Source: an uncultured Candidatus Saccharibacteria bacterium
Lineage (GTDB): Bacteria; Patescibacteriota; Minisyncoccia; UBA6257; XYB1-36-10
Length of the DNA: 64,000 nucleotides
Direction: 5' to 3'
NCBI GenBank assembly: GCA_964362215.1
Contig: CAYIDJ010000002.1
Location: 911 to 64,910, forward strand
Shown: in pieces, positions 1 to 51,800 of the stretch
How positions within the stretch are numbered: position 1 is the stretch's first letter
Layout: each line of letters opens with the position of its first letter
Translations under genes and position numbers: made by a program
Notes under the pieces: generated by a model
Told to the model about the DNA's origin: nothing
The model's database searches: none
What the model saw: the letters and a program-made list of their open reading frames with translations, nothing else

Positions 1-1755
1 GATAGCCGACATTCCTACAGAAAGAGGAACGTTACTTTCTTCAGCGGTGAAGAAGGCCAGACCCGAGGGGATGGGGGTGGGTGGGACGCGAGTTGGAGTC
101 GCGGTGCGGGTGGAGGTGGGCGGGACGCGAGTCGCGGTTGGACGTGGCGTCGCGGTGTTGGCGGGAGTGGCGGTGTTAGTGCCGGTCGGCGTAGCGGTGG
201 CAGTCGGTGTCGGGGTATTGGTCGTGCCAATACTTAAAGCCGACGTTGATGTCGGGGTGGCGGTGGGTTGGGGATCGACCACCGAAAACATTAATATTTG
301 AATTCGGGGTCGATTCTCGCTGTTAAAGGCGAGAATGGAGATTTCAAATTCTCCCGTCGCTGATGTTATCAGCGTGGCGAGGATGGCGCCAGCACTTTCA
401 TTAATGATGGAGATTTCGTCTCCAAACACTAAGAGATCCGCTGGGCGGCCGGATGGTTCGGCGGCGGTGATGAGAATAGACACACCCTGTGTTCCTTGAA
501 GAATGTTTTCCAAGGAACGTGAGCCGAACAGAAATGTAGAGATGATAATGTTCGGTGTGGAGGGGGTGGTGGTGGGGGATGGAGCGGGGGTTGCGGTTGG
601 CACCGAGGTCACGATCGGTTCCGGTTCGGCGACTGTAGGAGTCGCGGTGGCCGGGACTGGTGTGAAAGTCGGTGTTTGAGTCGCGGTGGCTATCGGTATA
701 GGCGTTGATGTCACCGTTGGGGTGGGGGTGGGAGTCGAAGGAGACTCAAATGGGAGCACATCGATTATCACGTCTCCGCTTTGAGTCATTGAATTGCTGT
801 TGTTACGCTCGGTTACATACCAGTGGATGATATCTACTCCGCTAAAACCTCTGTTTGGGACATAGGTAAAACTTCCGGTGCGGTTCATCACAGTGATGTC
901 ACTTTCTTCCCAATGCCCAAACTCTGGTGGGGGGATTATGAAGAAAGATAACGGATCACCTTCTGGATCGGTGGCGGGCAATAGAATGGGTAAAGGCGTG
1001 TTTATATAAGTCCTTACCCTCATCTGTCTGCTGATAACAGGAAGTCTGTTTTGTCCGCCGGAGCCGCTGCTGCCGCCCGAAGGGGCGGGAGTCGCGGTGG
1101 GCGGTACTGGCGTTGCGGTGGGCGAGCTTCCGCCACTTCCGCCGGATGGGGTGGAAGTAGGTGGTACCGGAGTGGCAGTAGGTGAACCACTACCTCCACC
1201 GGATGGGGTGGAAGTGGGCGGTACGGGAGTCGCGGTGGCGGTTGGAGAGTAAGTAAACTCTCCAGCGCTGCGGCTGACGCCGTCCACTGTCAGGTTTCCG
1301 ATGTACAAACTACCACCTCCTGATTTAAGAAAGGTGATTTCTTGGACATAGAATAGTGGACTTGCATAGTTTAGGAAGGGCGTAGAAAGACCACCGGCGG
1401 TGCCGATAGTAGCCCAATCGAAACTACTGCTTGTCTGAATACTGTTTAGTGAGGCGCCAGTTCCCGCGTACGGAATGCTACCGTTACTGTAAAACGTATG
1501 AAAGAAGTTAAGCGGTGGGCTGGCCCAAGAACTACCAGCGGAATTGTAGCTCACGATGTTGTGGAATAAACCTGGCTGGTCAGCTTTTCTGATAACAATA
1601 TGGGTTATCAGGGCGGCATCCCCCCTAATTTCTAGAGAAACGCCGAAACTGTTAAGGGTGGCGCCGGAGCTGATGGTTAACGCTGATGTTGGTGTTGCCG
1701 AAAAGAATACTAACAATACTGCCAATACTAATGCGGTGATCGGTGTTGCTTTCAT
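1..1755 (-). CDS. large secreted Thr/Pro-rich repeat surface protein (start at 1755, runs off window start; 5' partial of window only)
   Basis: Reverse-strand ATG at 1753-1755 preceded by GGAGAAGGA Shine-Dalgarno sequence. N-terminus MKATPITALVLAVLLVFFSATPTSALT looks like a signal peptide. The frame is open to position 1 (last 20 codons checked: LAFFTAEESNVPLSVGMSAI). Linker repeats TATPVPPTSTPSGG recur. Absent from the ORF track because no stop lies within the window. Confidence 0.6.
   Translation of the reverse strand, partial: MKATPITALVLAVLLVFFSATPTSALTISSGATLNSFGVSLEIRGDAALITHIVIRKADQPGLFHNIVSYNSAGSSWASPPLNFFHTFYSNGSIPYAGTGASLNSIQTSSSFDWATIGTAGGLSTPFLNYASPLFYVQEITFLKSGGGSLYIGNLTVDGVSRSAGEFTYSPTATATPVPPTSTPSGGGSGSPTATPVPPTSTPSGGSGGSSPTATPVPPTATPAPSGGSSGSGGQNRLPVISRQMRVRTYINTPLPILLPATDPEGDPLSFFIIPPPEFGHWEESDITVMNRTGSFTYVPNRGFSGVDIIHWYVTERNNSNSMTQSGDVIIDVLPFESPSTPTPTPTVTSTPIPIATATQTPTFTPVPATATPTVAEPEPIVTSVPTATPAPSPTTTPSTPNIIISTFLFGSRSLENILQGTQGVSILITAAEPSGRPADLLVFGDEISIINESAGAILATLITSATGEFEISILAFNSENRPRIQILMFSVVDPQPTATPTSTSALSIGTTNTPTPTATATPTGTNTATPANTATPRPTATRVPPTSTRTATPTRVPPTPIPSGLAFFTAEESNVPLSVGMSAI
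1078..1250 (-). repeat. about 60-bp tandem coding repeat (3 units) encoding TATPVPPTSTPSGGSG linkers
   Basis: Three near-identical units (gggagtcgcggtgggcggtac... / ccggatggggtggaagt...) are visible directly in the sequence. Confidence 0.6.
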
Positions 1756-1893
1756 TTTCCTTCTCCTTTTTTTTGGAATTTTTTCCAATATTTAGTTATC
1801 TAAGAACCGGTCAGATTATAGGATATTTTTATTGTAATGTCAACAATGCGGGCTATCGGCTGATAATTTGCAGTTGGTAGAAAAATAGAGGAA

Positions 1894-2000
1894 ACTGGAT
1901 TCCCGCTTTCACGGGAATGACAGAGGAGGGGACTGGATTCCAGCTTCCGCTGGAATAACAAGGCGGAAGGGATGGATTCCAGCTTTCGCTGGGACCCGCC
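1894..2000. repeat. tandem array of three about 38-bp hairpin units (GGACTGGATTCCCGCTTTC-GCGGGAATGACA family)
   Basis: Units at 1894-1922, 1931-1960 and 1971-2000 each form an 8-bp stem ATTCCNGC/GCNGGAAT with flanks GGACTGG and TGACA. Related copies occur at 4418, 12485 and 39885. Confidence 0.7.
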
Positions 2001-2041
2001 CAACGGAGTTGTTCGGGCAAGTGACAGAAAAGGAGAGGGAG

Positions 2042-2070
2042 TTGACAAGGGTTTTTATATGGTATATAAT
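2042..2070 (+). promoter_or_regulatory. sigma70-like promoter (TTGACA-17-TATAAT) for the 2132 gene
   Basis: TTGACA at 2042-2047, 17-nt spacer, TATAAT at 2065-2070. Confidence 0.55.
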
Positions 2071-2131
2071 ACGGCGGAATTAATATTCAGTCGGTTAGGG
2101 CGTTTATTTATTAGGTTTTAAGCAATAATTT

Positions 2132-3808
2132 ATGATTAATAAGTTTGTAGGTTTGTTAGTGGTCGGTTTGGTTATTACCAGCTTGTTTTCGGGTGCGCCG
2201 GTGGTCGTGGCGGCAAGCGTAACTCCAGCAAACGGCGGGCAGAATCTGCCAACTGGGTCGGGATTTGTGAATTTAACTAATGTGTTTATCAGTGAGGTAG
2301 TGGGAGGGGAGATAAGCGTGGGAACGCACATAATTAACCTTCCGGCCGGATGGGAATTTGATACCAGCGGCACGGTTGAGATTGTCACTACAAGTTCGCT
2401 TATGGTGATTTCTCCTACTTCACTTAATCCGGGAGCGAGTTCTTTTTCGTTTCAGATACAGTCGCCGTCAGTGCCGGCTTCTGATTTAGCGATTAAATCA
2501 ATGCGGGTGCGGCCGACGGGAACGGCGGGTGGCAATATCACTCACAGCGGCGCGGCGATTACCGGAATTGTAAATGGCGCGACGAGTTTGGGAGCGTTGT
2601 CAGTGGCGGGTGGTGGCGGAGGCGGTTCATCTTCCGTGGGGCCGCTTTTGGCGGCTGGTGGCGGGGGAGCGGGAGCGCCGATTGTTCCGCCCAGTGGTAT
2701 TTCCGTTCGTATTAACAACGGAGCGGAGACGACTAACAGCCGAACGGTAACGCTTTATATCGTAGCCACTTATGCCGGTGATATGATAATCGCTAACGAC
2801 GAGCCGATTTTTGAAAATTCCGTGCTGGAGTCGTTCGCGGAGCGTAAGACGTGGACATTGTCGGCGGGGGCGGGCGAGAAGCGAGTGCACATAAAGTTCC
2901 GCAGTCCGACCGGCGTTTATTCGGAAGCGGTTTCCGATTCTATCCGGTATGAGCCGGCCGCGGTGGCAGCGCCGATGCCGGAACCGGGTTCGCCCGACGT
3001 CAATATTGATGGAACGATTGATATTGGGGACGCGGCGACGGTTATCACCGGCTGGAACAATGCGGGAGCGACTGACATCAACCGTGATGGAGTTACGGAC
3101 ATAAAAGATTTCAACGCGGTGATGGCGGGGTGGGATGGGGCGGTTCCTTCCACTCGCAGCGGCGCGGCGGACACGATTTTCAGATTGTCTCCGATTATTA
3201 CCGAGGCACGCACTGGCGGGCAGGTGGCGGTGACAATTGAAGTTCTGCCGGGTTCAAACCCAATTTATACTACCCGTTTAGTGCTTAACTATTCGGCGAA
3301 TATGCTGGAGGTGGCACAAGTGAGTTATGAAAACGGATGGATGCCTTTATCTATCGGAATTAACGCGTCGGACGCGGCCGGCACATTGGTGCGGACGGCT
3401 GGGTTCCCTCGCGGATTGGATTCAAACCGGAATTTTATGAGAGTGGTGTTTAATGCCAAGCGGCCGGGGACGGCAACGGTGTCCGTTAACAGCGGCTCGG
3501 TGGCAATGGATGGACGCGGCTTAAATGAGTTTGGCGGCGGATTGGCGCAGACGGCGATAACGATTACCGGTACGCCAGTGGCGGCCGCGACGATAGTGAC
3601 GCCGGCGGCGAGAGTAACTTCGGTAGCGCCGACGGCGGGAACTGAAGCAGAAGCGCCGGTAACAGAGACAACGGAACAGCCGGTACAGCCGTTAGGAGCT
3701 TTGGTGGTGGATTTGTTTAGCAATTTGTCACCGGCGGCGTACGCGGCGGCGATAGCGATTTTGGCGGCGGCCGGATATGGGGCCAGACGGTGGTTTATGC
3801 CGTTCTAA
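2132..3808 (+). CDS. secreted Gly-rich cell-surface protein with dockerin-like Ca-binding repeats and C-terminal hydrophobic anchor
   Basis: Signal peptide MINKFVGLLVVGLVITSLFSGAPVVVAAS. Poly-Gly linkers. DVNIDGTIDIGDAATVITGW and DINRDGVTDIKDFNAVMAGW match dockerin type-I repeat logic (DxNxDGxIDxxD). C-terminal AAYAAAIAILAAAGYGA transmembrane-like tail. Confidence 0.6.
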   Translation: MINKFVGLLVVGLVITSLFSGAPVVVAASVTPANGGQNLPTGSGFVNLTNVFISEVVGGEISVGTHIINLPAGWEFDTSGTVEIVTTSSLMVISPTSLNPGASSFSFQIQSPSVPASDLAIKSMRVRPTGTAGGNITHSGAAITGIVNGATSLGALSVAGGGGGGSSSVGPLLAAGGGGAGAPIVPPSGISVRINNGAETTNSRTVTLYIVATYAGDMIIANDEPIFENSVLESFAERKTWTLSAGAGEKRVHIKFRSPTGVYSEAVSDSIRYEPAAVAAPMPEPGSPDVNIDGTIDIGDAATVITGWNNAGATDINRDGVTDIKDFNAVMAGWDGAVPSTRSGAADTIFRLSPIITEARTGGQVAVTIEVLPGSNPIYTTRLVLNYSANMLEVAQVSYENGWMPLSIGINASDAAGTLVRTAGFPRGLDSNRNFMRVVFNAKRPGTATVSVNSGSVAMDGRGLNEFGGGLAQTAITITGTPVAAATIVTPAARVTSVAPTAGTEAEAPVTETTEQPVQPLGALVVDLFSNLSPAAYAAAIAILAAAGYGARRWFMPF

Positions 3809-3966
3809 CTAGATAATAGATGGAAGATATAAGATAGAGAGAGGAGAGATTCTTCACTGCGTTCAGAATGACAGAAAGGGAGCGGAAATATTATAGATAA
3901 GATAAAAATCCGTCTCGACCTCAAGTCGGGGCGGATTTTTGTTGACGGGGAGGGGAAGGAGGATTT

Positions 3967-4410
3967 ATGATGAAGGCAGAAATTTTAAAATCATATTTTG
4001 AAGGTAAAGGAGGAAATAGCGCCATGATTTCATTTAATAAGGCAAAACGACAAAGTACGTGGCTGGATATAATTTTAAAGGAGCCGGAGTATTTTGGTGA
4101 ACCATATGTTTTAGAATTTGAGAAAGAAGTGGTGCTGGATGTGACGAATTTTGAAGTTCTAAACGATGTTTTAGGCGACCGGATGAATGAAGGAGTAAGA
4201 AAGTTGGTGGTTGATATGGGAAACGTCAGCCGTATGACCGCTAATGCTTTAGCGGTACTAACCGCCAAGAACGAAGAGTTTAAAGCGAAGGGCGGGGAGA
4301 TAGTGCTGGCTAACCTAACTTTGTTAATGGAGAATTTTTTAAGAGAATTGCACTTTGATACGATTTTCCGTATTTTTGGAAGTGTGGAGGAGGCGATGGA
4401 CTTATTTTAA
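3967..4410 (+). CDS. STAS-domain protein (anti-sigma-factor antagonist SpoIIAA-like)
   Basis: Strong GGAGGA Shine-Dalgarno sequence. Segment VVDMGNVSRMTANALAVLTAKNEEFKAKGGEIVLANL...FDTIFRIFGSVEEA is typical STAS architecture. Confidence 0.55.
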   Translation: MMKAEILKSYFEGKGGNSAMISFNKAKRQSTWLDIILKEPEYFGEPYVLEFEKEVVLDVTNFEVLNDVLGDRMNEGVRKLVVDMGNVSRMTANALAVLTAKNEEFKAKGGEIVLANLTLLMENFLRELHFDTIFRIFGSVEEAMDLF

Positions 4411-4417
4411 TGAAGAG

Positions 4418-4448
4418 GACTGGATTCCTGCTTTCGCAGGAATGACAC
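4418..4448. repeat. single copy of GGACTGGATTCC..GGAATGACA hairpin repeat immediately after STAS gene stop
   Basis: gactggattcctgctttcgcaggaatgacac. Confidence 0.65.
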
Positions 4449-4562
4449 GGAAGTAAAAGATAAATCCCGGAGATGATATCAAAGGGATTTTTTATTTTGG
4501 AAGCGAAGCCTGCCTACGCTCTGTCGAGCTTCGGCGGGGCGAAGTGGTATAATGAAAAGCAA

Positions 4563-5431: not shown

Positions 5432-5536
5432 AGTAAAAGATAATTGTTTGTGAGACACGTGTATTTTCTGGCTGGAAAATCACTCTGATTCGCACCGCCG
5501 TGCTCCGCGCGGTCTCACAAACAATTATCTTTTACT
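5432..5536. repeat. long palindromic element, family B (perfect about 24-bp stems flanking conserved core CTCTGATTCGCACCGCCGTGCTCCGCGCGGTC)
   Basis: aaaagataattgtttgtgagac ... gtctcacaaacaattatctttt is perfectly self-complementary. The loop is nearly identical to the copy at 42665-42776. Confidence 0.7.
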
Positions 5537-5606: not shown

Positions 5607-5656
5607 AGCCTGCCTAAATTTTTACATGAGTAAAAAATTAGGCAGGCTTTAATTTT
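5607..5656 (+). terminator. hairpin terminator-like element (AGCCTGCCTAAATTTTT...AAAATTAGGCAGGCTTT)
   Basis: 17-bp stem followed by T-rich tract. Same GCCYGCC..GGCRGGC hairpin type as at 22835, 35080 and 58190. Confidence 0.4.
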
Positions 5657-7891: not shown

Positions 7892-9820
7892 ATGAAAAGC
7901 AAACGGTTGTTGATAGTAATGCTGGTTATGGTAGCGGTGATAACACAATCAGCAGAGGAAGGGATTACGAGATTTGACCAGTGGCGTGCCAATATACAGT
8001 TGGGGGATATATTGTATGACCCTTACGGTTTTGGGATCGGAGATGATACAAAAACTGGCCATATAGGGATTTACGTTGGCAGTTTGGAATATGGGGGACG
8101 GAGATGGGACAATCAGGTGATTGAGTCGACATTAACGGGTGATGGTGTTTATTTTATTGGAATTGAGACGTGGGATCCGTGGCATGGCCAGCAGGAAGCC
8201 TGGATTTTGCGGCCGCTGGAAGTTGATCAGTCGCGGAAGGCGGCGGCAGTTAATTTTGTCAAGCGGCAAATAGGAAAACCGTACAACTTGAATTTTTTTA
8301 GGGCGCCGCGCACTTCAGTGAATAATGAAAGTTGGTATTGCAGTGAATTAGTGTGGGCGGCTTATTGGAATGAGGGCAGAGGCGTTAATCTGGTGACGGT
8401 AGACGTACCGGAACTTTTCAGATTAAATTCTCGTGTTTCGCCGCTCGATATTTACAACAGTAATCGGATTGAAGCGATTAGTTATTACGGTCCGCAGTAT
8501 CCTTTGTTGCCAGGAGCGTTACGGGTGCATAATGTTTCCCTACAGCGCAATTACGGTTCTATAGCCGAAGCGCTGATTGAGGCGGCAACCGGCAATATCA
8601 TTTTTCTTGACGCTGGCAGTTATCTAGAAAGAGTGGTGGTGGAGACGCCGGGGATAAAATTTTATGCGCGGCCAACTGGTTTCAAAACCTATGCCGATAT
8701 TTATAAGAGGAACAGTGTTTGGGACACGATTCAGCAGATTTTTAGGATAGATAAAGACACTTTGACGGTTAAAGCGCCGGGGGCGAGTTTTTATGGAATA
8801 GTATTGCGCGGTTCGGCACACGGCGAGGATGACGGTGGCTTATTTGTGGACACGGGCGCCAATCGGACGACGGCGCGCAATTGTATATCTTTTGGAAACT
8901 CGGTGGGGTTGAAAATACGGTCTTCGTCAAATAATTATTTTTCCAGATTTGTCATGGATAACAATGAGCGTGGTTTCGGATGGGTTGCTTCTTTCGGTAA
9001 TACATTAATGATGTCGTCGGTTGCGGGGAGTAGTGATATCTCTGTTTTTACCGAGGATACCAGCTCCTGCCCGTCGGTGGTTTTAGCGGAACAGACCAGT
9101 AGCGGAACGTGGTTATCTAAAGCCAGAGTTTTCCGCGATAATTTGGCAAGCGAGAAGGCAATTCGACTCTACTACGAATTAGGACCGGGGCTGACGGAGT
9201 TTGTGCCACACGCCGAATGGGCATTGCCTACGGCGCGACGTTTAGCAGAACTGACGTTGAATTTAGACAGCCGCGACGGTTTGAAAAAAGTTTTAGTGGA
9301 GCGGCGGGATGTGGAATTGGCAAAGTTGATAGTAGCCGATTTGAAACGAGCGCCAGTTGAACAGGAAATATTATCTGAACTTAAGGAAATAATAGATAAA
9401 CTGGAAGATGGAGTAGGCCATTCAATATATTCTTGGCTTGAGGAGAATGGTTTATTGAGAGATGGGAACGGCGAGACGGAAAAGCTAAACGAGCGTCCGG
9501 TTTCTTATATTTATCTCAATGACTTCGGCGGAAATGACTATATTGGTCAGTCGGATTATTCGGATGGATTGATTGTGTGGAATTCGCCGCGGGAGTTGAA
9601 TTACATTTTTTCTGGACGCCGGCAGCGCGGTTATCTGGGAAATTATTGGGGGGGAGATGTTTCTTACTGGACAGACAGGAATGGAAACGGCGTGGCGGAT
9701 ACGGTGTTCAGCGACGACCGTTATCCTTTAGTAGCACCAGTTGCCAATTATTTTCCTCAATCTTCAAATAAGGATGTGGAGAATACGGAAACTGCTGTGA
9801 TGGGATGGGATATATATTAA
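7892..9820 (+). CDS. secreted multidomain protein with N-terminal permuted papain-like (NlpC/P60 superfamily, YiiX/C92-like) hydrolase domain and beta-helix-like middle region
   Basis: Shine-Dalgarno sequence GGAGAAGGG. Signal peptide. GDILYD...GHIGIYVG...ESWYCSELVWAAYW is the His-before-Cys permuted arrangement. Repetitive N/G/S-rich strands (NRTTARNCISFGNSVGLKIRSSSNNYF). Confidence 0.45.
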   Translation: MKSKRLLIVMLVMVAVITQSAEEGITRFDQWRANIQLGDILYDPYGFGIGDDTKTGHIGIYVGSLEYGGRRWDNQVIESTLTGDGVYFIGIETWDPWHGQQEAWILRPLEVDQSRKAAAVNFVKRQIGKPYNLNFFRAPRTSVNNESWYCSELVWAAYWNEGRGVNLVTVDVPELFRLNSRVSPLDIYNSNRIEAISYYGPQYPLLPGALRVHNVSLQRNYGSIAEALIEAATGNIIFLDAGSYLERVVVETPGIKFYARPTGFKTYADIYKRNSVWDTIQQIFRIDKDTLTVKAPGASFYGIVLRGSAHGEDDGGLFVDTGANRTTARNCISFGNSVGLKIRSSSNNYFSRFVMDNNERGFGWVASFGNTLMMSSVAGSSDISVFTEDTSSCPSVVLAEQTSSGTWLSKARVFRDNLASEKAIRLYYELGPGLTEFVPHAEWALPTARRLAELTLNLDSRDGLKKVLVERRDVELAKLIVADLKRAPVEQEILSELKEIIDKLEDGVGHSIYSWLEENGLLRDGNGETEKLNERPVSYIYLNDFGGNDYIGQSDYSDGLIVWNSPRELNYIFSGRRQRGYLGNYWGGDVSYWTDRNGNGVADTVFSDDRYPLVAPVANYFPQSSNKDVENTETAVMGWDIY

Positions 9821-9848
9821 TTTTTTTTAAATTTAGAATATTTTTTTG

Positions 9849-9877
9849 AACTGGGTATAAGTGCCCAGTTTTATTTT
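9849..9877 (+). terminator. rho-independent terminator
   Basis: AACTGGG-tataagtg-CCCAGTT followed by TTATTTT. Confidence 0.55.
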
Positions 9878-9966
9878 GGCGTGTTTGGTATAATTAAATT
9901 ACTAATTTTTAATTAAAGTAGCCCTTCGATAAACTCAGGGACTATTACGACTTTTTTTAACAGTTT

Positions 9967-11664
9967 GTGACGGATGTTTTTTTACAACTGGGGGTGGTAA
10001 TGGGCATCGCGGTAGCGGTGTCGTGTCTGGCGCGATGGTTGCGCCAGCCGATGCTGGTGGGTTATATCGCGACGGGACTTATTATCAGTATCGGCCTGGC
10101 AAACTGGGTTGATTTTGCGTCCATTGAGTCGTTCGCGCGTTTGGGAGTGGCGTTACTTTTGTTTATGGTGGGGATGGGGATAGCACCACACTTGGTTTAC
10201 GAGATGGGGCCGGTGGCGGCAGCGGTAGGTCTGGGGCAAATTGTTTTTACGGCGGTGATAGGTTATGGAATCGCGATGTTGTTGGGGTTTGCCAGTGTTA
10301 CGGCCCTGTATCTGGCAGTGGCATTTACTTTTTCCAGCACGATTATAATCGTACAGCTTCTGCATGAGCGGGGAGACACGGAAAAACTTTACGGAAGGAT
10401 AGTGATAGGAATGTTATTGGTGCAGGACTTGGTGGCAATGGTGATACTGCTTGGCATTTCTTTATTCCAACAGGCGGGCGGGGTGGCGGCGGGGTGGGAC
10501 AGTTTCACAAGTTTGCTGGTTTTTAATTTTGCCGCTGGCGCGCTTTTGGTTTATTTATTGGGGGTGTTCGTATTGCCGCGGGTGGATAAGTTTTTTGTCA
10601 AGAGCAGCGAGTCATTGCTTGTTTTTTCGCTGACAGTTTGTTTCGGGGTGATAGTGGCATTTAAATACTTGGGATTTCCGCCGGAAGTGGGAGCGTTGTT
10701 GGCGGGGGTGATGATGGCTTCCTCGCCGCACCAGCGTGAAATAGCGGCCAGGATAAAACCGCTGCGCGACTTTTTCCTGATTATGTTTTTCGTGATGCTG
10801 GGATTCACGCTGGAACCGTCGGCTTTAGCGGGGAATTGGTGGCCGGCGGCGGTATTTTCACTTTTTATAATTGTCGGCAATCCGCTGATTGTGATGACGG
10901 TAATGAAGGTGATGGGTTATTCGCTACGGACAATGTTTTACGCGGGGCTGACGGCGGCGCAGATAAGCGAATTTTCACTGATACTTTTAGTATTGGGAGT
11001 GTCGCTGGGACACATTCCGGCGGCGGTAGCGGCGCTGGGAACACTGGTGGGATTAGTAACAATCGCGGCCTCATCTTATATGATTACTTACGCGGACGGG
11101 CTGTACCGATATTTGCGTCCGTATTTGGAAGTTTTCAGCGACGGGCGGGCGCACCCGGAAGATAAGGAAAAAGGAGAGGAGTATGAGGTGTTTGTTTTTG
11201 GCGCGCATCGATTGGGGGGCGGGGTGATTGCTTCTTTGAAGCGCAAGAAGGTTAAATTTTTAGTGGTGGATTACGACCCGATAATTGTGGCGGAACTTAA
11301 AGCCAGGCGGGTGCTGGCGGTGTTCGGCGACGCGGGAGAACCGGATTTTCTGGAGGAATTAAAACTGAAGAGCGCGAAGATGATCATATCTTCCATTCCA
11401 GAGGCGGAGACGGCGATAAATATTATGAATTATTTGAAAAAGATACATTCGCGAGCGGTTTTTGTGACGGTGGCCGGTGCGGTTAGCGAAGCAGAAAAAC
11501 TTTATGAAGCGGGGACGCATTTTGTGATTATGCCGCATTATTTAGGTAGACGTTATTTAGTGGAGATGCTGGAGCGGCACGGGTTTGACAAGAAAAAGTA
11601 TAACCGGGAGCGAAGCAGGCATCAGCGAGAGTTGGTTTTAGCGGGGCAAGAGAAAACTCTTTAA
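9967..11664 (+). CDS. monovalent cation:proton antiporter-2 (CPA2, KefB/KefC-like) with C-terminal RCK/TrkA-N domain
   Basis: About 12 transmembrane helices of Na+/H+ exchanger type. C-terminal Rossmann segment VFVFGAHRLGGGVIASLKRKKVKFLVVDYDP...AVFGDAGEPDFLEE typical of TrkA-N. Confidence 0.8.
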   Translation: MTDVFLQLGVVMGIAVAVSCLARWLRQPMLVGYIATGLIISIGLANWVDFASIESFARLGVALLLFMVGMGIAPHLVYEMGPVAAAVGLGQIVFTAVIGYGIAMLLGFASVTALYLAVAFTFSSTIIIVQLLHERGDTEKLYGRIVIGMLLVQDLVAMVILLGISLFQQAGGVAAGWDSFTSLLVFNFAAGALLVYLLGVFVLPRVDKFFVKSSESLLVFSLTVCFGVIVAFKYLGFPPEVGALLAGVMMASSPHQREIAARIKPLRDFFLIMFFVMLGFTLEPSALAGNWWPAAVFSLFIIVGNPLIVMTVMKVMGYSLRTMFYAGLTAAQISEFSLILLVLGVSLGHIPAAVAALGTLVGLVTIAASSYMITYADGLYRYLRPYLEVFSDGRAHPEDKEKGEEYEVFVFGAHRLGGGVIASLKRKKVKFLVVDYDPIIVAELKARRVLAVFGDAGEPDFLEELKLKSAKMIISSIPEAETAINIMNYLKKIHSRAVFVTVAGAVSEAEKLYEAGTHFVIMPHYLGRRYLVEMLERHGFDKKKYNRERSRHQRELVLAGQEKTL

Positions 11665-11676
11665 GTTTGGGCGGAG

Positions 11677-12450
11677 GTGAGTTATACTCCGTGGGTTATG
11701 TCGCAGTATTATAAACCGAACCGAAATCCGGAGTGGAATTACGGGGGGCGGAACTGGAAATTGTCGCGGAGCAAGATTGATTTGTTTAAGGAGTGCCCGC
11801 GCTGTTTTTATATTGATAATAAGTTGGGGGTGGCGCGGCCGCCGGGGTATCCGTTTTCGCTGAACGCGGCGGTGGATGCTTTGTTAAAAAAAGAATTTGA
11901 TATTCATCGGGCGGCGGGAACAACGCATCCTTTGATGAAAGCGTACGGGATTGAGGCGGTGCCTTTTCGGCATTCTAAAATGAATGAGTGGCGAGATTCG
12001 CTAAGGGCGGGGGTGCAATTTTATCATGAGCCGACCGGTTTGCCGGTGAAGGGAGGAGTAGACGATATTTGGATGGGGCGGGACGGGAAGCTTTTTGTGG
12101 TTGATTATAAGGCGACGAGTAAGGAAGGGGAAGTTAATTTAGACGCGGCGTGGCAGGACGGGTATAAGCGGCAGATGGAAGTTTATCAGTGGCTGTTGCG
12201 GCACAACAGTTTTGTGGTTTCGGATACGGGATATTTTGTTTATGCTAACGGGCGGACGGACAGAGAAGCATTTGACGGGAAACTGGAGTTTGATGTAAAA
12301 GTAATTCCATACACCGGAGACGACGGATGGGTGGAGCCGACACTTTTTAAGATAAAAGAATGTCTGGAGGAGAAGGAAATACCGGCGGCGGGGGCGGATT
12401 GCGATTATTGCCGGTATAGGGGGGCGGTGGAGAAAGTTCAAAGTTTATAG
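11677..12450 (+). CDS. PD-(D/E)xK nuclease, Cas4/RecB-like with four-Cys cluster
   Basis: D...DYK motif (GGVDDIWMGRDGKLFVVDYKAT). N-terminal CPRC and C-terminal CDYCRY match the Cys arrangement of Cas4/AddB-type Fe-S nucleases. No CRISPR array nearby. Confidence 0.5.
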   Translation: MSYTPWVMSQYYKPNRNPEWNYGGRNWKLSRSKIDLFKECPRCFYIDNKLGVARPPGYPFSLNAAVDALLKKEFDIHRAAGTTHPLMKAYGIEAVPFRHSKMNEWRDSLRAGVQFYHEPTGLPVKGGVDDIWMGRDGKLFVVDYKATSKEGEVNLDAAWQDGYKRQMEVYQWLLRHNSFVVSDTGYFVYANGRTDREAFDGKLEFDVKVIPYTGDDGWVEPTLFKIKECLEEKEIPAAGADCDYCRYRGAVEKVQSL

Positions 12451-16203: not shown

Positions 16204-16347
16204 ATGCGGCTCATAATATACTCTCGCTACCGTCCATCTCCCCAGCGAGGAGATGGACTACGCCTCGCCCTCGCTCGTCCCGACTAAAGTCGGGACACCG
16301 TGCCTGCTCGGGCTCGGATGCGCGCTCGAGTATATTATGAGCCGCAT
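16204..16347. repeat. long palindromic element, family C (core CTACCGTCCATCTCCCCAGCGAGGAGATGGACTACGCCTCG)
   Basis: Perfect 20-bp outer stem atgcggctcataatatactc / gagtatattatgagccgcat. Conserved core shared with 63102-63257. Confidence 0.7.
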
Positions 16348-16439
16348 AGTGTATATTTTTTAGTGTGGACTCGTGGGGGTTAGTGGAGAGAGTCCATGGC
16401 GGTCTCGGAAGGAAGCTTTTTCTTTACGAGTGATGTTTA

Positions 16440-16575
16440 GGGGAAGTTTTGATATATACTTGTATAGAAGTCGCTAATGGCAATGGGGAGAATAAACCAC
16501 TCTTTTCTTTCCTACTTTAGGGGAGAGGTTGGATAATAAGGTAGTCCCGAATTACTCGGGACTTTTATTATATAA
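16440..16575. repeat. shared 3' module of composite repeats (TAGAAGTCGCYAATGG..GGGGAGAATA ... GGGAGAGGTTGGAT..GTAGYC + hairpin + T-run)
   Basis: Motif blocks recur at 22761-22875, 34991-35125, 42826-42880 and 63276-63340. Ends in GTCCCGAATTACTCGGGAC hairpin plus TTTTATT. Confidence 0.6.
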
Positions 16576-17140: not shown

Positions 17141-18451
17141 ATGGTGAAAAATCTGGCGGAGTTGGCAAAAAGTCCGGCGCGGGAGAAGGCGCTGGAAATT
17201 CTTAACGCGGGATATGAGGCGATAAACATTCGGCGATTGGTTAGCCGCAAGGTGCGTTTAGAGGGTTCGCTATTTAAGGTTGAGGGGAGAGAATTTGATT
17301 TGAAAGAGTACAATCGTGTTTTTTTGGTGGCCTTTGGTAAGGGAGCGGCAGATTTCGCGTTGGCAGTGGCGGGGGTGTTGGGTGACAGATTGGAGCGAGG
17401 AATAGCGCTGGATATAATCAAGCCAGAGGCGGAATTACTGGAGGTTATTCCGGAAAGAATTGAGTTTTTAACGGGGACGCATCCGTTGCCGTCAGCGGCC
17501 AATATCGCGGCGACAAAAAAAATAGCAGGGCTGGCTGACCGACTGGGAAAGAGAGATTTGCTTTTGGTACTGGTTACCGGCGGCGGGTCGTCACTACTAA
17601 CAGCGTCGGAGCGAGAGTTTACGGACGCGCTGGTAGCGATAACAACATTGACTAAGGCGGGCGCACCGATTAATGAGCTCAACACGGTGCGCAAGCACTT
17701 GGGGGAGTTAAAAGGAGGAGGGTTGGCGCGGTTGGCGTATCCGGCGACGGTGGTCTCTTTAATCGCCTGTGATGTGTGTTATCGAGCGGATATTGATTTA
17801 TCCCTGGTGGCGTCAGGCCCGACGGTTGAAGATAAAAGCACAAAGCGTGAGGCGGAGGAGATACTGACGCGGTACGGGCTTAATCCATACTTATTTAATT
17901 TGCGGGAGACGCCGAAGGAGGAGATGTATTTTGAACGGGTGGAAAACATATTGGTGGCGTGTAATCAAGACGCGTTGGCGGCGATGGAGGAGAAGGCGGC
18001 TGAATTAGGACTATCGGCGAAAATTTTTTCCACGGCGGTGGCGGGGGAGGCACGGAATGTTTTTCACGCGATACTGGACAAGATAGAGCCGGGGGAAGTA
18101 GCGCTGGCCGGAGGGGAGACGACGGTTAAGATAAGAGGGAGGGGGCGTGGAGGAAGAAATCAGGAAGCGGTTTTAGGCGGGTTGAGATATGTTTATGGGC
18201 ACAAGGATTGGCCGGGGGGGACGTGGGCGATAATAAGCGCGGCTTCCGACGGAAGGGATAATACACCGGCGGCGGGGGCGATGGGGGACAATTTTACGTT
18301 TGAGGCGGCGCGGAAGCAGGGGTTGGATATGGTCAAGTTTTTGGACGATAACGATTCATTTAACTTCTTGGCGGCAACGGGAGACTTAATTTATGCGGAC
18401 CGGAAGAGTTTTAACGTGGCGGATTTGATGTTGGCGGTGAGGGAGAAATGA
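17141..18451 (+). CDS. glycerate 2-kinase (MOFRL family, GckA/TtuD-like)
   Basis: About 430 aa. N-terminal domain with LLVLVTGGGSSLL. C-terminal MOFRL-like segment (GGETTVKIRGRGRGGRNQE). Confidence 0.65.
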   Translation: MVKNLAELAKSPAREKALEILNAGYEAINIRRLVSRKVRLEGSLFKVEGREFDLKEYNRVFLVAFGKGAADFALAVAGVLGDRLERGIALDIIKPEAELLEVIPERIEFLTGTHPLPSAANIAATKKIAGLADRLGKRDLLLVLVTGGGSSLLTASEREFTDALVAITTLTKAGAPINELNTVRKHLGELKGGGLARLAYPATVVSLIACDVCYRADIDLSLVASGPTVEDKSTKREAEEILTRYGLNPYLFNLRETPKEEMYFERVENILVACNQDALAAMEEKAAELGLSAKIFSTAVAGEARNVFHAILDKIEPGEVALAGGETTVKIRGRGRGGRNQEAVLGGLRYVYGHKDWPGGTWAIISAASDGRDNTPAAGAMGDNFTFEAARKQGLDMVKFLDDNDSFNFLAATGDLIYADRKSFNVADLMLAVREK

Positions 18452-21259: not shown

Positions 21260-21269
21260 TTATATTTAT

Positions 21270-21328
21270 TTTCCCCATTACCCATAGCTCCGCTATTCGC
21301 TTAACGTGAACAAATAGGAATTTGTTTA
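21270..21328. repeat. fragment of family D repeat (CCCCATTACC..GCTCCGCTATTCGCTTAA) fused to GAACAAATAGGAATTTGTT palindrome
   Basis: Matches the 5' part of copies at 22590, 25987 and 34826. Confidence 0.55.
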
Positions 21329-22585: not shown

Positions 22586-22878
22586 GTGATATTCTCCCCA
22601 TTACCATCGGCTCCGCTATTCGCTTAAAGCGAGTAATATTCACTCCCCTCTAATTTGGCTTATAAAACGGCTGGTTCCCGTTCCTCCCAAGGGGATTTTC
22701 CGACCAGCCGTTTTATAAAAGCCAAATTCTTCGTTGCGTTCATTTATCGCTAATTAAGCTCATAGAAGTCGCCAATGGTAATAGGGAGAATAATTTACCC
22801 TTTTTATTTGGAGAGGGGGTTGGACTTAAGGTAGCCCGCCAAAATTTTTGCTTGCGCAAAAACTTAGGCGGGCTTTTG
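22586..22878. repeat. composite long palindromic element, family D plus shared 3' module and GCCCGCC hairpin
   Basis: attctccccattaccat...atggtaatagggagaat outer inverted repeat. Inner inverted repeat ttggcttataaaacggctggt/accagccgttttataaaagccaa. 3' end GGGAGAGGGGGTTGGACTTAAGGTAGCCCGCC-hairpin-TTTT. Confidence 0.7.
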
Positions 22879-22880
22879 TT

Positions 22881-22918
22881 TTATCCACTTATAATACATA
22901 TGTATTATAAGTGGATAT
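22881..22918. repeat. perfect palindrome TTATCCACTTATAATACATATGTATTATAAGTGGATAA (DnaA-box-like half-sites)
   Basis: 38-bp palindrome. Half-site TTATCCACT is one mismatch from the DnaA box TTATCCACA. Related sites at 37771, 46274 and 26081. Confidence 0.6.
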
Positions 22919-23120
22919 AATTAAAGAAATAGCCCCGAGGTGGGTCGGGGCTAATGATGTTTATGTGGATTAATAAAAAAAAGGAAAAGAAGGGAAATTA
23001 GAAGGAACAGATAGAAGATAATAAAGGCATCAGAGGTGCGGAGCATATTTTTTTCCTTTCTTGAATGAGAGCTGATTAAATTATACCGAAAACTTGGCAG
23101 AGATGCTATAATTAAAAAAT

Positions 23121-24247: not shown

Positions 24248-24778
24248 TCATTGAGCAGCGGAAATTTCTTCTTTTTCAAGAATCGCTGCTATTTTCTTAA
24301 TACAGGCATAGGCCTTGGGAGAGTGGATGCTGGTAAAGCAAAAGATGTTTTTATATTCTTCCACGGTTGAGGCGAATTCCATGGCCTTCTCCAAGGCCTT
24401 TCTTTCCACCTCGCTGCCGCCTGGAGCTTTCCGGCAGATACCCAGACACTCTTTCACGGTTGAGGCGAATTCCATGGCCTTCTCCAAGGCCTTTTTTTTC
24501 ATCTCGCTGCCGCCTGGAGCTTTCTGGCAGATATCCAGACACTCTTCCACGGTTGAGGCGAATTCCATGGCCTTCTCCAAGGCCTTTTTTTCCACCTCGC
24601 TGCCGCCTGGAGCTTTCCGGCAGATACCCAGACACTCTTCCACGGTTGAGGCGGAGAGAAGTTTCTTCATTATGTCGGTTTCCTCCGGTAATGGCACATC
24701 GAGGGCTGAACAAACTTGGTCTCTTTTGTCTTGACCAAGAATCAGGCACAACCTATCAACTAACACTGAATTGTCCAT
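24248..24778 (-). CDS. hypothetical protein with four 31-aa tandem repeats (ALEKAMEFASTVEECLGICRKAPGGSEVEKK)
   Basis: Minus-strand ORF with GAAGGGAG Shine-Dalgarno sequence and TTGACA-17-ATATAT promoter upstream. Plus-strand ORFs through the same repeats are judged frame artefacts. Confidence 0.55.
   Translation of the reverse strand: MDNSVLVDRLCLILGQDKRDQVCSALDVPLPEETDIMKKLLSASTVEECLGICRKAPGGSEVEKKALEKAMEFASTVEECLDICQKAPGGSEMKKKALEKAMEFASTVKECLGICRKAPGGSEVERKALEKAMEFASTVEEYKNIFCFTSIHSPKAYACIKKIAAILEKEEISAAQ
24365..24690. repeat. 93-bp tandem repeat, about 3.5 units (coding)
   Basis: ggttgaggcgaattccatggcc recurs at 24365, 24458, 24551 and 24644. Confidence 0.8.
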
Positions 24779-24835
24779 AACAGAACTCCCTTCACTTTTT
24801 TGGGTTTTAATTAACACACCTTCAGGGTGTGACGC

Positions 24836-25955: not shown

Positions 25956-25986
25956 GGCGGGAGGAAAAAATATAAAGTTCAGGCAA

Positions 25987-26100
25987 TATTCTCCCCATTA
26001 CCACTGGCTCCGCTATTCGCTTAAAGCGGATAATATTCGCTCCAATCCAATTTGGCTTATAAAATGACCGGTTCCCGTTGTTTTATAAGTGGATAGAGTA
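25987..26100. repeat. truncated family D repeat ending in TTTTATAAGTGGATA half-palindrome
   Basis: atattctccccattaccactggctccgctattcgcttaaagcggataatattcgctcc matches copies at 22590 and 34826. Confidence 0.65.
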
Positions 26101-26953: not shown

Positions 26954-27238
26954 ATGATAAAGCCATTAGGAAATCGGGTGGTAATAGAGCCGGCGAAGGA
27001 GGAGGCGGCGACATCATCGGGAATTGTTTTGCCGGAGACGTCAGAGAAGAGGCCGGTAAAAGGGACGGTAATAGCGGTGGGGCCGGGAAAGCTTACCGAG
27101 AAGGGAGAACGTTTGCCGATGTCGGTTAAAGAGGGAGATAAAGTTATTTTCAGCGAGTACAGCACGACGGAATTTAAGGAAGGAGATAAAAAATATCTGG
27201 TGGTGCAGGAAGATGATATACTCGGAATTTTGGAGTAG
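26954..27238 (+). CDS. groES: co-chaperonin GroES
   Basis: MIKPLGNRVVIEP...GIVLPE...GTVIAVGPG... canonical GroES. Confidence 0.95.
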   Translation: MIKPLGNRVVIEPAKEEAATSSGIVLPETSEKRPVKGTVIAVGPGKLTEKGERLPMSVKEGDKVIFSEYSTTEFKEGDKKYLVVQEDDILGILE

Positions 27239-27300
27239 TACTCAAAAATTCCGGAATGACGAATTAATAATCAATAAATTACTAAATTTCTAATCAATAA

Positions 27301-34821: not shown

Positions 34822-35128
34822 TATATATTCCCCCACCACCATTCGCTCCGCTACTCGCTCAAAGCGAATAATATTCGCTCCGTTCTAATTTGGCTTATAA
34901 AATGACTGGTTCCCATTCCTCCCTCGATAGAACCTCGGGATTTTCCGACCAGTCATATTTATAGAAGCCAAATTGTTCATTCCGCTCATTTATCGCTTAT
35001 TAAGCTCGTAGAAGTCGCGAATAATGATGGGGAGAATATAAACTATTCTTCCTGGGGGAGAGGTTGGATGAGAATGTAGCCCGCCAAAATTTTTGCTTAC
35101 GCAAAAACTTAGGCGGGCTTTTGTTTAT
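34822..35128. repeat. composite long palindromic element, family D plus 3' module plus GCCCGCC hairpin
   Basis: Same block order as 22586-22878, with divergent outer stems. Ends GGGAGAGGTTGGATGAGAATGTAGCCCGCCAAAATTTTTGCTTACGCAAAAACTTAGGCGGGCTTTT. Confidence 0.7.
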
Positions 35129-35191: not shown

Positions 35192-37120
35192 TTAGAGTTT
35201 GTAGATGAAGATGGAGGTGCCGGCGCGGTAGTCGGGAGGCGGGGGTTCGGCGAGGTTAACGGGTAAGCCGCGGGCGGTTTTTAGCCAGAGATACTCGTTT
35301 TCGGGAGCGCGGGCAAAGCCGGGAGCGGGGATGGCAGTGGCGGAAGCGAGAGTGTTGACGGAGACGGCCAGCCACTCAATTCCTTCTTCACGGGGATTGT
35401 TTTTTTCCGACCACCAAGGAACGAAGGCATTGCCGAGGCGATAAGAGGGAGAATCGCCGCCGAAGTAGTCAACGGCGATTTTGTCTATCCGGCGGCTATT
35501 TACAAAATCATCCAGGCGTTTTAGATCTTGTCCCCAGTCATAATTGGAATCGGTAACAACGCGATAGCCATTTAACGTACCTCCGCCGAGTTCATTGAAG
35601 TAGGAAAGGAAGAAAGGAGAGGTAACGGCGATGGTGATAGCGAGCCAGACGAGGAGAGCGCTTAAGGCGGTAAATTTAACAGCGAGACGGGAGAAAATAC
35701 CGACCAGAGAACGGAAACGGTTTAAGAATGAAACGGAGGAGAGATGATAAGGAAAAGAAACAATCCAGTTTTTAACGGAGCCGGCGGCGAGGATGTAGAG
35801 CATGGGAACAGTAGGTAAAATGTGGCGGACACCGATATTAAGCGGGCTGGTAATGCTGTAGCCCCAGTAAAAAACAACAAAGAGAATCAGAGAAAATTCA
35901 ATGAAATTTGTATGGAGGTATTCACCGAGAGTGAAGCCGCGGCGGGAGAAGGTGCGTTTCATTTTAATCAGTGCCAAGAGGAGGCCGGCCAGAATAAAAA
36001 TCAGGGAAGGAAGCGGTTCTTTAAGAAGGAAGATGACGGGAAAATAAGAGAGCCAGCCGGCGGCGGAGACTTCGCCTAAGAAGTAGCCGGTGTTGCCGGC
36101 GGCGGAGCGTTGAGAGACCATTAGGACGCCGAGCAGGTATTCACCCAGCGGCTGGGTCAGGCGGTGGCCGGAGAGAAATATATCAACATCAGCGAGGCAG
36201 CGCGCCGGACGGCAGGTTTGCCCGGCGGGAGTGGGGCCGCCAGCAAATGAGTTTAAACTGAAGACAGTATCACGGTGTTGGCGGGAGGTGGGGTAGCCGA
36301 TAGTAAATACAAAGTAAACGGCATAGATGACAACGGTTCCGATAAGGAAGACAGAAAGAAGTTGTCCCGCCTTTTTTAATTTTTCGCGAAAGAGGTAAAG
36401 AAGTTTTGTTTGGAGAGTAGTGTTTTTAAGGTTAACAGCGGCGTTGCGGATAAGGTGGACGGCAGTAATGATAATAAAGAACGGTATCAGGAGAACAACG
36501 GAGAATTTAAGAAGTTGGGCGAGGCCGAAAACGAGACCAGCAATAATTAAAGAGCGGCGATTAGGGCGTTCCAGAAAGTTAAGGAAAGCCCAAGAAGCGG
36601 CGAGGATACCCAGAGCGGCGCCGATGTCGGTGGTGACATAGTGGCCGTGAGCGAGGACGGTGGGAGAGAGAGATAAGAAGGCGGTGGGGAGAAGCGCCCA
36701 CCAGCGGCCGAGAAGACGGGAGGAAAGGCCATAGGTTATGATAATCAGAAGAAGAGTCAGAAGCATTGGGCCGAGGCGAGCGGAAAAGAGAATCTGGTCG
36801 GGATTATTTCCGGATTCAAAAAGGAATTGCGTGCCAGCGGTCCATTGGCCGTTAATGTCTTCCTGCCAGGAGGGGCGGTCGGAGGGGAAGTTGAGATTTA
36901 AAAAAAGAAGGGGAAGAGCGGAAATGACCTTAACGAGCGGAGGATGTTCGGGGTTAAGACGGTAATTAAAAAATTTTAGGTAGGAGTAGCCGGCGGGGAT
37001 ATGCGCCAGCTCATCCATAACAACAGAGTCGCTCGACGCGGCGGAGAGCATAAAAGAGAAAGAGACGGCGATAAGGGCGGCGACAAGGAACCAAGGAACG
37101 AAAGATCTGATTTTGTTCAT
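35192..37120 (-). CDS. GT-C family glycosyltransferase (PMT/ArnT-like, family 39/83-like) membrane protein
   Basis: About 12 transmembrane helices. N-terminal loop SDSVVMDELAH with the DE motif typical of GT-C enzymes. Confidence 0.6.
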   Translation of the reverse strand: MNKIRSFVPWFLVAALIAVSFSFMLSAASSDSVVMDELAHIPAGYSYLKFFNYRLNPEHPPLVKVISALPLLFLNLNFPSDRPSWQEDINGQWTAGTQFLFESGNNPDQILFSARLGPMLLTLLLIIITYGLSSRLLGRWWALLPTAFLSLSPTVLAHGHYVTTDIGAALGILAASWAFLNFLERPNRRSLIIAGLVFGLAQLLKFSVVLLIPFFIIITAVHLIRNAAVNLKNTTLQTKLLYLFREKLKKAGQLLSVFLIGTVVIYAVYFVFTIGYPTSRQHRDTVFSLNSFAGGPTPAGQTCRPARCLADVDIFLSGHRLTQPLGEYLLGVLMVSQRSAAGNTGYFLGEVSAAGWLSYFPVIFLLKEPLPSLIFILAGLLLALIKMKRTFSRRGFTLGEYLHTNFIEFSLILFVVFYWGYSITSPLNIGVRHILPTVPMLYILAAGSVKNWIVSFPYHLSSVSFLNRFRSLVGIFSRLAVKFTALSALLVWLAITIAVTSPFFLSYFNELGGGTLNGYRVVTDSNYDWGQDLKRLDDFVNSRRIDKIAVDYFGGDSPSYRLGNAFVPWWSEKNNPREEGIEWLAVSVNTLASATAIPAPGFARAPENEYLWLKTARGLPVNLAEPPPPDYRAGTSIFIYKL

Positions 37121-37770: not shown

Positions 37771-37856
37771 TTATCCACTTATAAAACATATGTTTTATAA
37801 GTGGATAGGTTGGGTGTGGTTACTATAATTTTTCCACGGTCGTTGGAAAATTATAG
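37771..37856. repeat. pair of perfect palindromes immediately after mpg stop: TTATCCACTTATAAAACATATGTTTTATAAGTGGATA and CTATAATTTTTCCACGGTCGTTGGAAAATTATAG
   Basis: Both recur after the rnhA stop at 46231-46309, with the spacer between them conserved in layout. Confidence 0.65.
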
Positions 37857-40908: not shown

Positions 40909-40923
40909 ATTACAAAATATTTG

Positions 40924-42640: not shown

Positions 42641-42780
42641 CAACATACTCTCGCTTAGCGGCAATCAGAAGCCCAGTTTCCTGTTTGTTGGACACGGATA
42701 TTTTTTTGCTAAAAAATTCCTCTGACTCGCACCGCCGTGCTCCGCGCGGTCCAACAAACAGGAAACTGGGCTTCTCTGGC
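42641..42780. repeat. long palindromic element, family B (perfect about 27-bp stems flanking conserved core CTCTGACTCGCACCGCCGTGCTCCGCGCGGTC), with family-C-like 5' lead CAACATACTCTCGCT
   Basis: cagaagcccagtttcctgtttgttggac ... gtccaacaaacaggaaactgggcttctc. Core nearly identical to 5461-5512. Confidence 0.7.
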
Positions 42781-42825
42781 TGATTTATGTGTTTTAAGTG
42801 AGTTGCTCTTAAATTTATCAACCTT

Positions 42826-42880
42826 AAGAGGAAGAGTTGGATGATAATGTAGCCTGCTTGCCGGCAGGCCTTGATTTGTA
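42826..42880. repeat. shared 3' module (GGAAGAGTTGGATGATAATGTAGCCTGC + hairpin)
   Basis: Same GAGnTTGGAT..GTAGCC block as the other composite repeats. GCCTGCTTGCCGGCAGGCC hairpin. Confidence 0.55.
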
Positions 42881-42896
42881 GCAGTACAAACAAAGC

Positions 42897-44478: not shown

Positions 44479-44580
44479 TATTCTTCTCCTACTTCGATTT
44501 TTAATGTGCAGAGTAAAGCTGATTAGTTTATAATTCAGTTTTTGACTGATGTCAATACTTTTGGACTTACACTACTCGTT

Positions 44581-44618
44581 AAACTATTCTAATGTTCTCA
44601 AGAACATTAGAATAGTTT
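44581..44618. promoter_or_regulatory. 38-bp perfect palindrome AAACTATTCTAATGTTCTCAAGAACATTAGAATAGTTT (operator-like)
   Basis: Lies in the divergent promoter region. Core AATGTTCTYRAGAACRTT also occurs at 51817-51834. Confidence 0.5.
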
Positions 44619-44669
44619 AGAGGTGTTAGTAAGTGGTTTTTTTAAGGGAGACAGTTTAGAATTAGATGA

Positions 44670-46189: not shown

Positions 46190-46230
46190 AAAGTCATAAA
46201 GTCCATTAAATTTTGTTCTTTTAACACCAA

Positions 46231-46309
46231 CTACAATTTTTCCACGGCCGTGGAAAAATTGTAGTAACTATACCTATCCACTTTCAACACATATGAACTG
46301 AAAGTGGAT
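46231..46309. repeat. pair of palindromes after rnhA stop: CTACAATTTTTCCACGGCCGTGGAAAAATTGTAG and TATCCACTTTCAACACATATGAACTGAAAGTGGATA
   Basis: Same two-palindrome arrangement as 37771-37856. Confidence 0.65.
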
Positions 46310-51765: not shown

Positions 51766-51771
51766 CAAAAT

Positions 51772-51800
51772 AAAATGCCGCTTAAGCGGCATTTTATAAT
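51772..51800 (+). terminator. hairpin after tRNA-Glu (AAATGCCGC-ttaa-GCGGCATTT)
   Basis: Visible directly. Confidence 0.55.

Follow-up and report, generated by a model that had tools for sequence, protein, structure and literature searches.

Modular palindromic hairpin repeats in intergenic DNA of an uncultured Patescibacteria lineage

Several composite, non-coding repeats recur in the 64,000-nt stretch of a Patescibacteria contig analysed here (hereafter, the window), and the question that they raise is whether such units behave as DNA elements or as RNAs. [quoted passage not shown] We found that this set of modular hairpin repeats is real and previously undescribed. Its three families, B, C, and D, are best regarded, with a probability of roughly 0.6, as lineage-specific, non-coding palindromic repeat families that spread and rearrange as DNA, being of the same kind as the RPE, ERIC, and BOX-RUP-SPRITE repeats.

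The window contains two copies each of families B, C, and D and four fragments. Each unit forms one long self-complementary hairpin of 105–215 nt and is small, non-coding, multi-copy, mostly intergenic, and without a conserved ORF. The units follow a common plan, in which an asymmetric, C-rich core containing small covarying hairpins is kept and the long outer stem is free in sequence provided that pairing holds; the outer stems are unlike between copies and complementary within each copy. Every copy named in the preliminary description is present, far above chance. Family C is represented by C16 (16204–16347, + strand, as for all parts of the window composites; ~20-bp outer stem; 169.5 bits with the covariance model R2) and C63 (63102–63259; 175.7 bits), which are 87% identical over 62 nt (E = 1e-15) and share a second block. 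C16 comprises hairpin 1 with an invariant loop, CCAGCGA, a variable middle hairpin, and conserved C-rich junctions. The two full-length copies of family D, D22 (22590–22792, an imperfect hairpin of ~203 nt) and D34 (34825–35038), match at 80% over 304 nt (E = 5e-68), and the truncated copies of this family were recovered as left-arm fragments, one located between the PPDK and enolase genes (21267–21313) and the other, a left half (25986–26079), abutting half of a TTATAAGTGGATA palindrome. Family B comprises B5 (5432–5536; 23-bp perfect outer stem, conserved 59-nt core; 117.8 bits with model R1) and B42 (42667–42775; 25-bp perfect outer stem around the core; 129.4 bits). The family C lead noticed ahead of B42, CAACATACTCTCGCT, is also genuine and is located at 42641–42655 as an orphan left arm.

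Many copies had further been thought to end in one shared 3′ module. The component blocks exist, but they do not form a single unit, because the presumed module consists of the closing arm of family D, a loose purine-rich motif, and an intrinsic terminator. The block TAGAAGTCGC.AATGG.AAT.GGGAGAATA is the closing (right) arm of D and occurs only at 16465, 22763, and 35009; downstream of C16 (16465–16494), it is an orphan whose left arm is absent. The purine-rich motif is present as GGGGAGAGGTTGGATAATAAGGT at 16520–16542 and as GGGGGAGAGGTTGGATGAGAATGTAG downstream of D34, and GGAGAGGTTGGAT is found in exact form only at 16522 and 35057. The motif copies at 22811, 42830, and 63284, downstream of D22, B42 (as GAGGAAGAGTTGGATGATAATGTAG), and C63 (as GAGGTAAGAGTTAGAC), respectively, differ at at least three positions, and the pattern alone is indistinguishable from purine-rich background; these degenerate copies are supported by their position and by conservation in L137, L103, L118, and L096 (L numbers denote loci on other contigs).

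The last component, a G+C-rich hairpin followed by a T-run, is a predicted intrinsic terminator. A terminator scan detected + strand hairpins of this type at 16543–16563 (AGTCCCGAATTACTCGGGACT, reaching 16575 with its T-run), 42852–42869, and 63306–63342 (17 bp, with a T-rich tail), and hairpins with T-runs at 5607–5648, 22835–22873, and 35080–35118 were found by eye and by a hairpin search. Motif, where present, and terminator together occupy 5607–5655 at the close of the B5 composite, 22811–22881, 35055–35126, 42826–42875, and 63276–63350. One terminator hairpin sequence constitutes a four-copy family of its own (5607, 22835, 35080, and 58192). Between C16 and the orphan D arm lies another module, GTGTGGACTCG-N5-GGTTAG (16363–16397), which was also found 3′ of elements in L133, L119, and L097. 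We rejected a small peptide encoded in the 3′ module, because the 19-codon ORF at 16477 and 22775 is, by eye, broken by a stop codon in the copy at 35009. The GTAG sequence that precedes some of the terminal hairpins was likewise rejected as a REP signature, because it represents GT plus the AG...CT stem ends that are general to terminators in this genome.

Other repeats are also present in the window. Perfect or near-perfect palindromes with 14–21-bp arms and 0–2-nt loops are located at 22879–22920, 27223–27253, 37772–37807, 44580–44619, 46230–46265, and 51770–51797, and may represent operator sites or landing sites for elements. One of these sequences, TTATCCACTTATAA.ACAT/ATGT.TTATAAGTGGATAA, is found at 22879 and 37772; a diverged version lies at 46266, and a half copy lies beside the truncated D at 26079. 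A short hairpin repeat, ACTGGATTCCCGCTTTCGCGGGAATGAC, which is presumably family A of the preliminary description, occurs at 1894–1928, 1932–1966, 4419–4453, and 39887–39921, with a weak copy at 48487; the gene at 2132 has two tandem copies upstream, and a single copy immediately precedes the gene at 4473. Three tandem 93-nt units (24357–24653; 94–98% identical), each containing a small GGCCTTCTCCAAGGCC hairpin, lie inside a minus-strand ORF (24248–24817). Very large ORFs without a Pfam match on record were also seen, at 58352–62863 of the window (1503 residues) and at 1808–5110 of L152 (1100 residues).

The core of family B consists, in order, of ACAC, a 10-bp hairpin (KGCT loop) in which one T is bulged, TCTGACTC, a 4-bp hairpin with a CGCC loop, and TCCGCGCGGT; the bulged T of the main hairpin is conserved. 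Covariation, which the preliminary description had proposed as a check, is strong in this family. In an alignment of 18 copies, both sides have changed with pairing kept at 34 of the 40 consensus pairs, and paired cells account for 94.2%, versus 41–52% in slid-partner controls. The covariation score is 0.68 versus 0.09–0.17, and the observed values were reached by none of 500 shuffles. In family C, where the invariant loop is carried on a covarying stem accompanied by a covarying 4-bp helix and the middle hairpin is unlike in every copy, 12 of 47 pairs are altered on both sides; in family D, this is the case for 12–16 pairs. The minus strand of both C and D folds as well as or better than the plus strand. 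Wobble pairs in the outer stem of D favour the minus strand, and the apex of D contains invariant U.G pairs on the plus strand.

A sharp distinction between core and stem was observed in family B. Four core haplotypes were identified, each of which is paired with two unrelated stems, and among copies of the same haplotype, identity is 100% inside the core and random immediately outside it. The stems are near-constant in length (23–25 bp, about 25), end in AG...CT, and contain 406 Watson-Crick pairs, 5 G.U pairs on the plus strand, 10 G.U-equivalent pairs on the minus strand, and 8 other pairs. Between the orthologues B42 (also called W42) and L137, only 2 of 59 core positions have changed, versus 6 of 25 in the stem, three of which are compensated. 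Stems are common to, and evolve by descent within, one subfamily (W42, L133, L103, L137, and L120).

The window matches contigs from well H43 of the Hainich aquifer (0.1 µm fraction); the closest relatives, Patescibacteria of the Paceibacteria type, have protein identities of 69% or less (PPDK and permease homologs). Beyond the window, further copies of the repeats were found on contigs from this aquifer as well as in other metagenomes. A stem-tolerant B-core pattern yielded 66 matches, among which ~20 are real copies on low-GC metagenome contigs; the remainder are chance matches in high-GC soil DNA. Contigs bearing B also carry C (L103 and L120), D (L118), the terminator family (L096), and the purine-rich motif. 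Model R1 detected further, more divergent members of B in L018, L129, and L062, and B is present in several divergent lineages of the Paceibacteria type. Model R2 detected only four copies of C, all in this lineage and none beyond it in 0.9 Mb. The D-arm pattern had no match among the GTDB species representatives, indicating that this genome and its close kin are absent from that collection. The contigs of L111, L146, and L120 begin or end within B or C elements, which points to repeats abundant enough to interrupt assembly.

Comparison with Rfam 15, another check that had been proposed, identified no family for the elements at gathering or permissive thresholds, using either the whole window or the elements alone. 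The best score over the elements was that of RsaF (25.6 bits versus a threshold of 60), the rest being generic hairpin matches, and no family reached even half its gathering score over any element. Elsewhere in the window, 47568–48063 encodes a bacterial class A RNase P RNA (214 bits), in which an AT-rich insertion of ~95 nt (~47836–47934) lies outside the family model. A phage or plasmid origin was rejected, because BLAST searches against plasmid and phage collections gave no match and three scans of viral contigs, which used conserved-core patterns and not arm sequences, detected only chance matches in high-GC coding DNA. In the literature, we found no description of dispersed hairpin repeats like these for Patescibacteria.

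Several independent observations favour spread at the DNA level over RNA genes. The modular, recombining, and dispersed nature that the preliminary description had ascribed to these non-coding elements is borne out by the copies on other contigs and by nesting, truncation, absence from a syntenic relative, and an in-frame copy. Orphan arms or truncated halves are present at 16465, 21267, 25986, and 42641. A complete B element lies inside a C shell in L133, L118, and L120, and the shell in L133 is nearly identical to that of C16. In L119 (2600–2910), the 3′ part of B and ~50 nt of its downstream flank are directly duplicated around a 190-nt insert. The whole W42 composite, located upstream of pgk in the window, recurs upstream of dnaJ in L103, to which 42664–42894 is ~75% identical. 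Units have been copied into intergenic DNA, where the adjacent housekeeping genes are unrelated, and in one case into a reading frame: at 17907–18022 (minus strand) of L062, tsaD contains an in-frame B-like hairpin, and the 30 residues that it contributes separate positions that are neighbours in solved TsaD structures, although the match scores weakly (32 bits, E of roughly 1e-4).

For an empty-site comparison, L157 was the sole syntenic relative identified; it shares the gene order of the window between the MacB permease and RmuC. None of its four orthologous junctions contains an element, and its intergenic lengths are 25, 177, and 38 nt, versus 973, 547, and 189 nt in the window. L157 is a distant relative (51–72% protein identity), and loss in its lineage may be another account of this absence. 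No insertion polymorphism was seen among close strains, L001 and L002 (the same strain) being identical to the window.

The window has a GC skew of +0.24 to +0.39 in every 4-kb bin, including the stretches of minus-strand genes (35192–37120 and 39346–42552), and a positive AT skew in all 4-kb bins except 1–4000 and 8001–12000; nearly all of its genes are on the + strand. The GC skew of L157 is +0.01. The strand asymmetry of the window is unusually strong and lineage-specific, and because the GC skew is uniform even over minus-strand genes, the + strand is probably the leading strand. At high-skew loci, the G-rich strand holds 23 of 24 independent copies, although a general tendency of genes to lie on the same strand confounds this orientation. 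The only copy on the C-rich strand of a high-skew locus is the inverted member of two B-family elements of L018 that lie head to head, 52 nt apart (3525–3639, +, and 3692–3807, −). G-rich-strand copies were found alike in divergent (pyrG/pgk, ZIP/dnaG, and NYN/xer) and convergent (efp/truB and hypothetical/PMT_2) gene contexts, and neither a 3′-UTR role nor a 5′-leader role covers all of these copies. The earlier statement that all copies lie at gene 3′ ends or between convergent genes fails for B42, which is located between the divergent genes pyrG (−) and pgk (+). The genes downstream of B include deoC-like, pgk, glycerate kinase, xer, dnaJ, dnaG, glyA, scpB, and argS genes, and a riboswitch or cis-regulatory leader was ruled out because they are functionally unrelated.

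The strongest rival explanation, though an unlikely one in our judgement, is that the repeats are genuine structured non-coding RNA families, either cis-acting 3′/5′-UTR modules or small RNA genes copied by ordinary duplication, in which hairpins are kept for protein binding, processing, or protection of mRNA 3′ ends and each unit has its own intrinsic terminator. The very strong covariation and the invariant loops agree with this explanation, as do the much better conservation of the core than of flanking intergenic DNA at orthologous loci and the conservation of B across divergent genomes of the Paceibacteria type. Moreover, same-strand terminator-like hairpins end the composites, and five of the six window composites begin 6–38 nt past a co-directional stop codon. 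Covariation is indeed what a non-coding RNA is expected to exhibit, yet the same signal is expected of a DNA hairpin. On the transcribed strand, wobble pairs are normally tolerated in RNA helices; here, however, the plus-strand stems show no G.U enrichment, the minus strand folds equally well or better, and GNRA or UNCG-type loops are absent. A promoter inside or upstream of B was rejected, because no conserved, promoter-like box is present at a fixed distance upstream and predicted promoter-like sites gave no usable signal. The lack of functional relationship among the genes beside the elements, the element-free orthologous sites of L157, and the lack of an Rfam match also argue against RNA families. 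The terminator-capped RNA originally envisaged accounts well for the conserved secondary structure and poorly for orphan arms, nesting, duplications, wobble-free stems, and the in-frame intragenic copy.

Classical MITEs, which are deletion derivatives of IS elements and depend on a DDE transposase that acts in trans, binding conserved terminal inverted repeats and generating target-site duplications, provide a distinctly improbable explanation. The repeats resemble MITEs in general properties, being small, non-coding, multi-copy, intergenic, stem-loop-forming, and lineage-variable (PMC10969869). However, conservation in B and C is lowest in the terminal inverted repeats, which are unrelated between copies that share identical cores. 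The best flanking direct repeat averages 3.0 nt, versus 2.56 ± 0.25 nt in controls, with no consistent length or sequence; in this test, element boundaries are uncertain, and the TA beside D is inseparable from an extension of the stem. No cognate transposase, for which the preliminary description had advised a search, is present in ~76 kb of this contig, and neither relatives of the repeats nor a related autonomous insertion sequence were detected in phage and plasmid collections. A strand orientation this strong is also unexpected for DDE cut-and-paste transposition. The dispersed, modular repeat part of the MITE proposal holds, whereas conserved terminal repeats, target-site duplication, and, in the ~76 kb of contig, a transposase were not found.

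It is scarcely credible that the variable 23–25-bp stems are guide-like sequences acquired on the constant core scaffold of hairpin RNAs: near-constant stem length, hypervariable stem sequence, and a conserved scaffold would suit such RNAs, and RNA-guided systems whose arrays are poorly conserved have been described in the phylum (TIGR-Tas, PMC12045711), but the arms match only their own partners and sibling copies in the ~2 Mb of DNA searched, the stems are shared and related by descent within the subfamily described above, and the elements are dispersed rather than arrayed, with no effector gene recurring beside them (the viral scans, which targeted core patterns, have no bearing on this reading).

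Returning to palindromic repeats that spread as DNA, we infer that copying would proceed via a folded single strand rather than by a cut-and-paste transposase that reads the element ends. Such copying would explain why target-site duplications are lacking, why the ends are not conserved, and why the copies follow a strand rule and have Watson-Crick-perfect stems. The 59-nt core of B would move, or be converted, independently of its stem and would probably land at the apex of long palindromes, which are plentiful in this genome; ten empty ones, with arms of 14–21 bp, are present in the window. Template switching within palindromes would then keep the stems perfect, and changes would look compensated, with which the W42/L137 pair is consistent. 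Where a composite is co-transcribed with its neighbours, the transcript would form a long RNA hairpin with an intrinsic terminator 3′ of it and could act as a 3′-end or insulator cassette, and would be a likely substrate for RNase III.

A more specific and rather doubtful version of this mechanism is that the core of B and, by analogy, those of C and D are minimal mobile units that are recognized as folded single strands and integrated, in a fork-oriented manner, into the apex of a pre-existing palindrome. If this is true, the B core would be a hairpin-targeting micro-element without terminal repeats or target-site duplication, and apex integration would create the design of a conserved core with unrelated, perfect stems and would progressively build nested composite hairpins. 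As to the main reading, landing in arbitrary palindromes leaves the near-constant 25-bp stem and its AG...CT ends unexplained. Also against the main reading, a core kept far better than its flanks and the presence of B in divergent lineages would equally be expected of a functional RNA or a protein-binding site. As for the mobilizing enzyme, no transposase, RAYT, or reverse transcriptase was detected in ~76 kb of the contig or in selected flanking ORFs at other loci.

Although the genomes of Patescibacteria are tiny and streamlined, intergenic regions enlarged 3- to 40-fold by structured repeats, which are missing from the syntenic L157, are tolerated in this lineage. The architecture of these repeats inverts that of an ordinary MITE, in that conservation is confined to the centre, sequence is free at the ends, and the strand rule is strict, which points to a copying route that reads the folded strand. 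Such a route would offer a new handle on how RPE, ERIC, and REP elements spread with no transposase in sight. In practical terms, the repeats supply covariance models for the annotation of these genomes and mark sites where transcripts are predicted to carry long, perfect duplexes and terminators.

Among known systems, the Rfam RNA families are similar only in having a conserved secondary structure with covariation. REP/BIME-RAYT and IS200/IS605-type systems operate by hairpin recognition and leave no target-site duplication, and a replication-linked strand bias is expected of single-stranded-DNA (HUH/Y1) enzymes. In the present repeats, too, recognition would depend on hairpins and not on terminal repeats, and the main core hairpin of B carries its conserved bulged T. 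IS200/IS605-type elements have subterminal hairpins, an orientation tied to the lagging-strand template, and a Y1 transposase. The lack of target-site duplication and the location of 23 of 24 copies on the G-rich strand would fit such an element, but no transposase was found, and the outer stem of D pairs better on the other strand. REP/BIME elements are defined by a palindrome of 20–40 nt after a GTAG-type tetranucleotide and by a RAYT gene; the units here do not follow this definition, being three to six times longer than REPs, and no Y1/RAYT gene was seen in ~76 kb of the contig.

ERIC and the Correia elements of Neisseria are intergenic imperfect palindromes that are co-transcribed and affect mRNA processing or stability (PMC10969869). 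The repeats described here are similarly imperfect palindromes in intergenic regions. Correia elements possess conserved 26-bp terminal repeats and a TA duplication, whereas neither conserved terminal repeats nor target-site duplication was found in this study. The pneumococcal BOX, RUP, and SPRITE elements cluster and insert into one another, and RPE and ERIC occur intragenically (PMC10969869). Modularity, stem-loop folding, clustering, and mutual insertion are shared with BOX/RUP/SPRITE, and SPRITE is a separate terminator-like repeat family (PMC10969869), which parallels the repeated terminator hairpin here. These pneumococcal repeats belong to another phylum and have no sequence similarity to the present elements; BOX modules are conserved in sequence throughout, whereas the outer stems here are unrelated between copies.

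The properties of RPEs are described in part in PMC10969869. The repeats have no sequence relationship to RPEs, and only one, weakly scoring, intragenic copy was found here. A conserved core with a hypervariable stem and a strand rule are not known as features of RPEs. Like RPEs, however, they are palindromic, non-coding units of ~100–150 nt that are dispersed in a reduced genome without a known transposase, and RPEs likewise occupy intergenic sites as well as in-frame sites within conserved genes, a habit paralleled here by the copy inside tsaD of L062.
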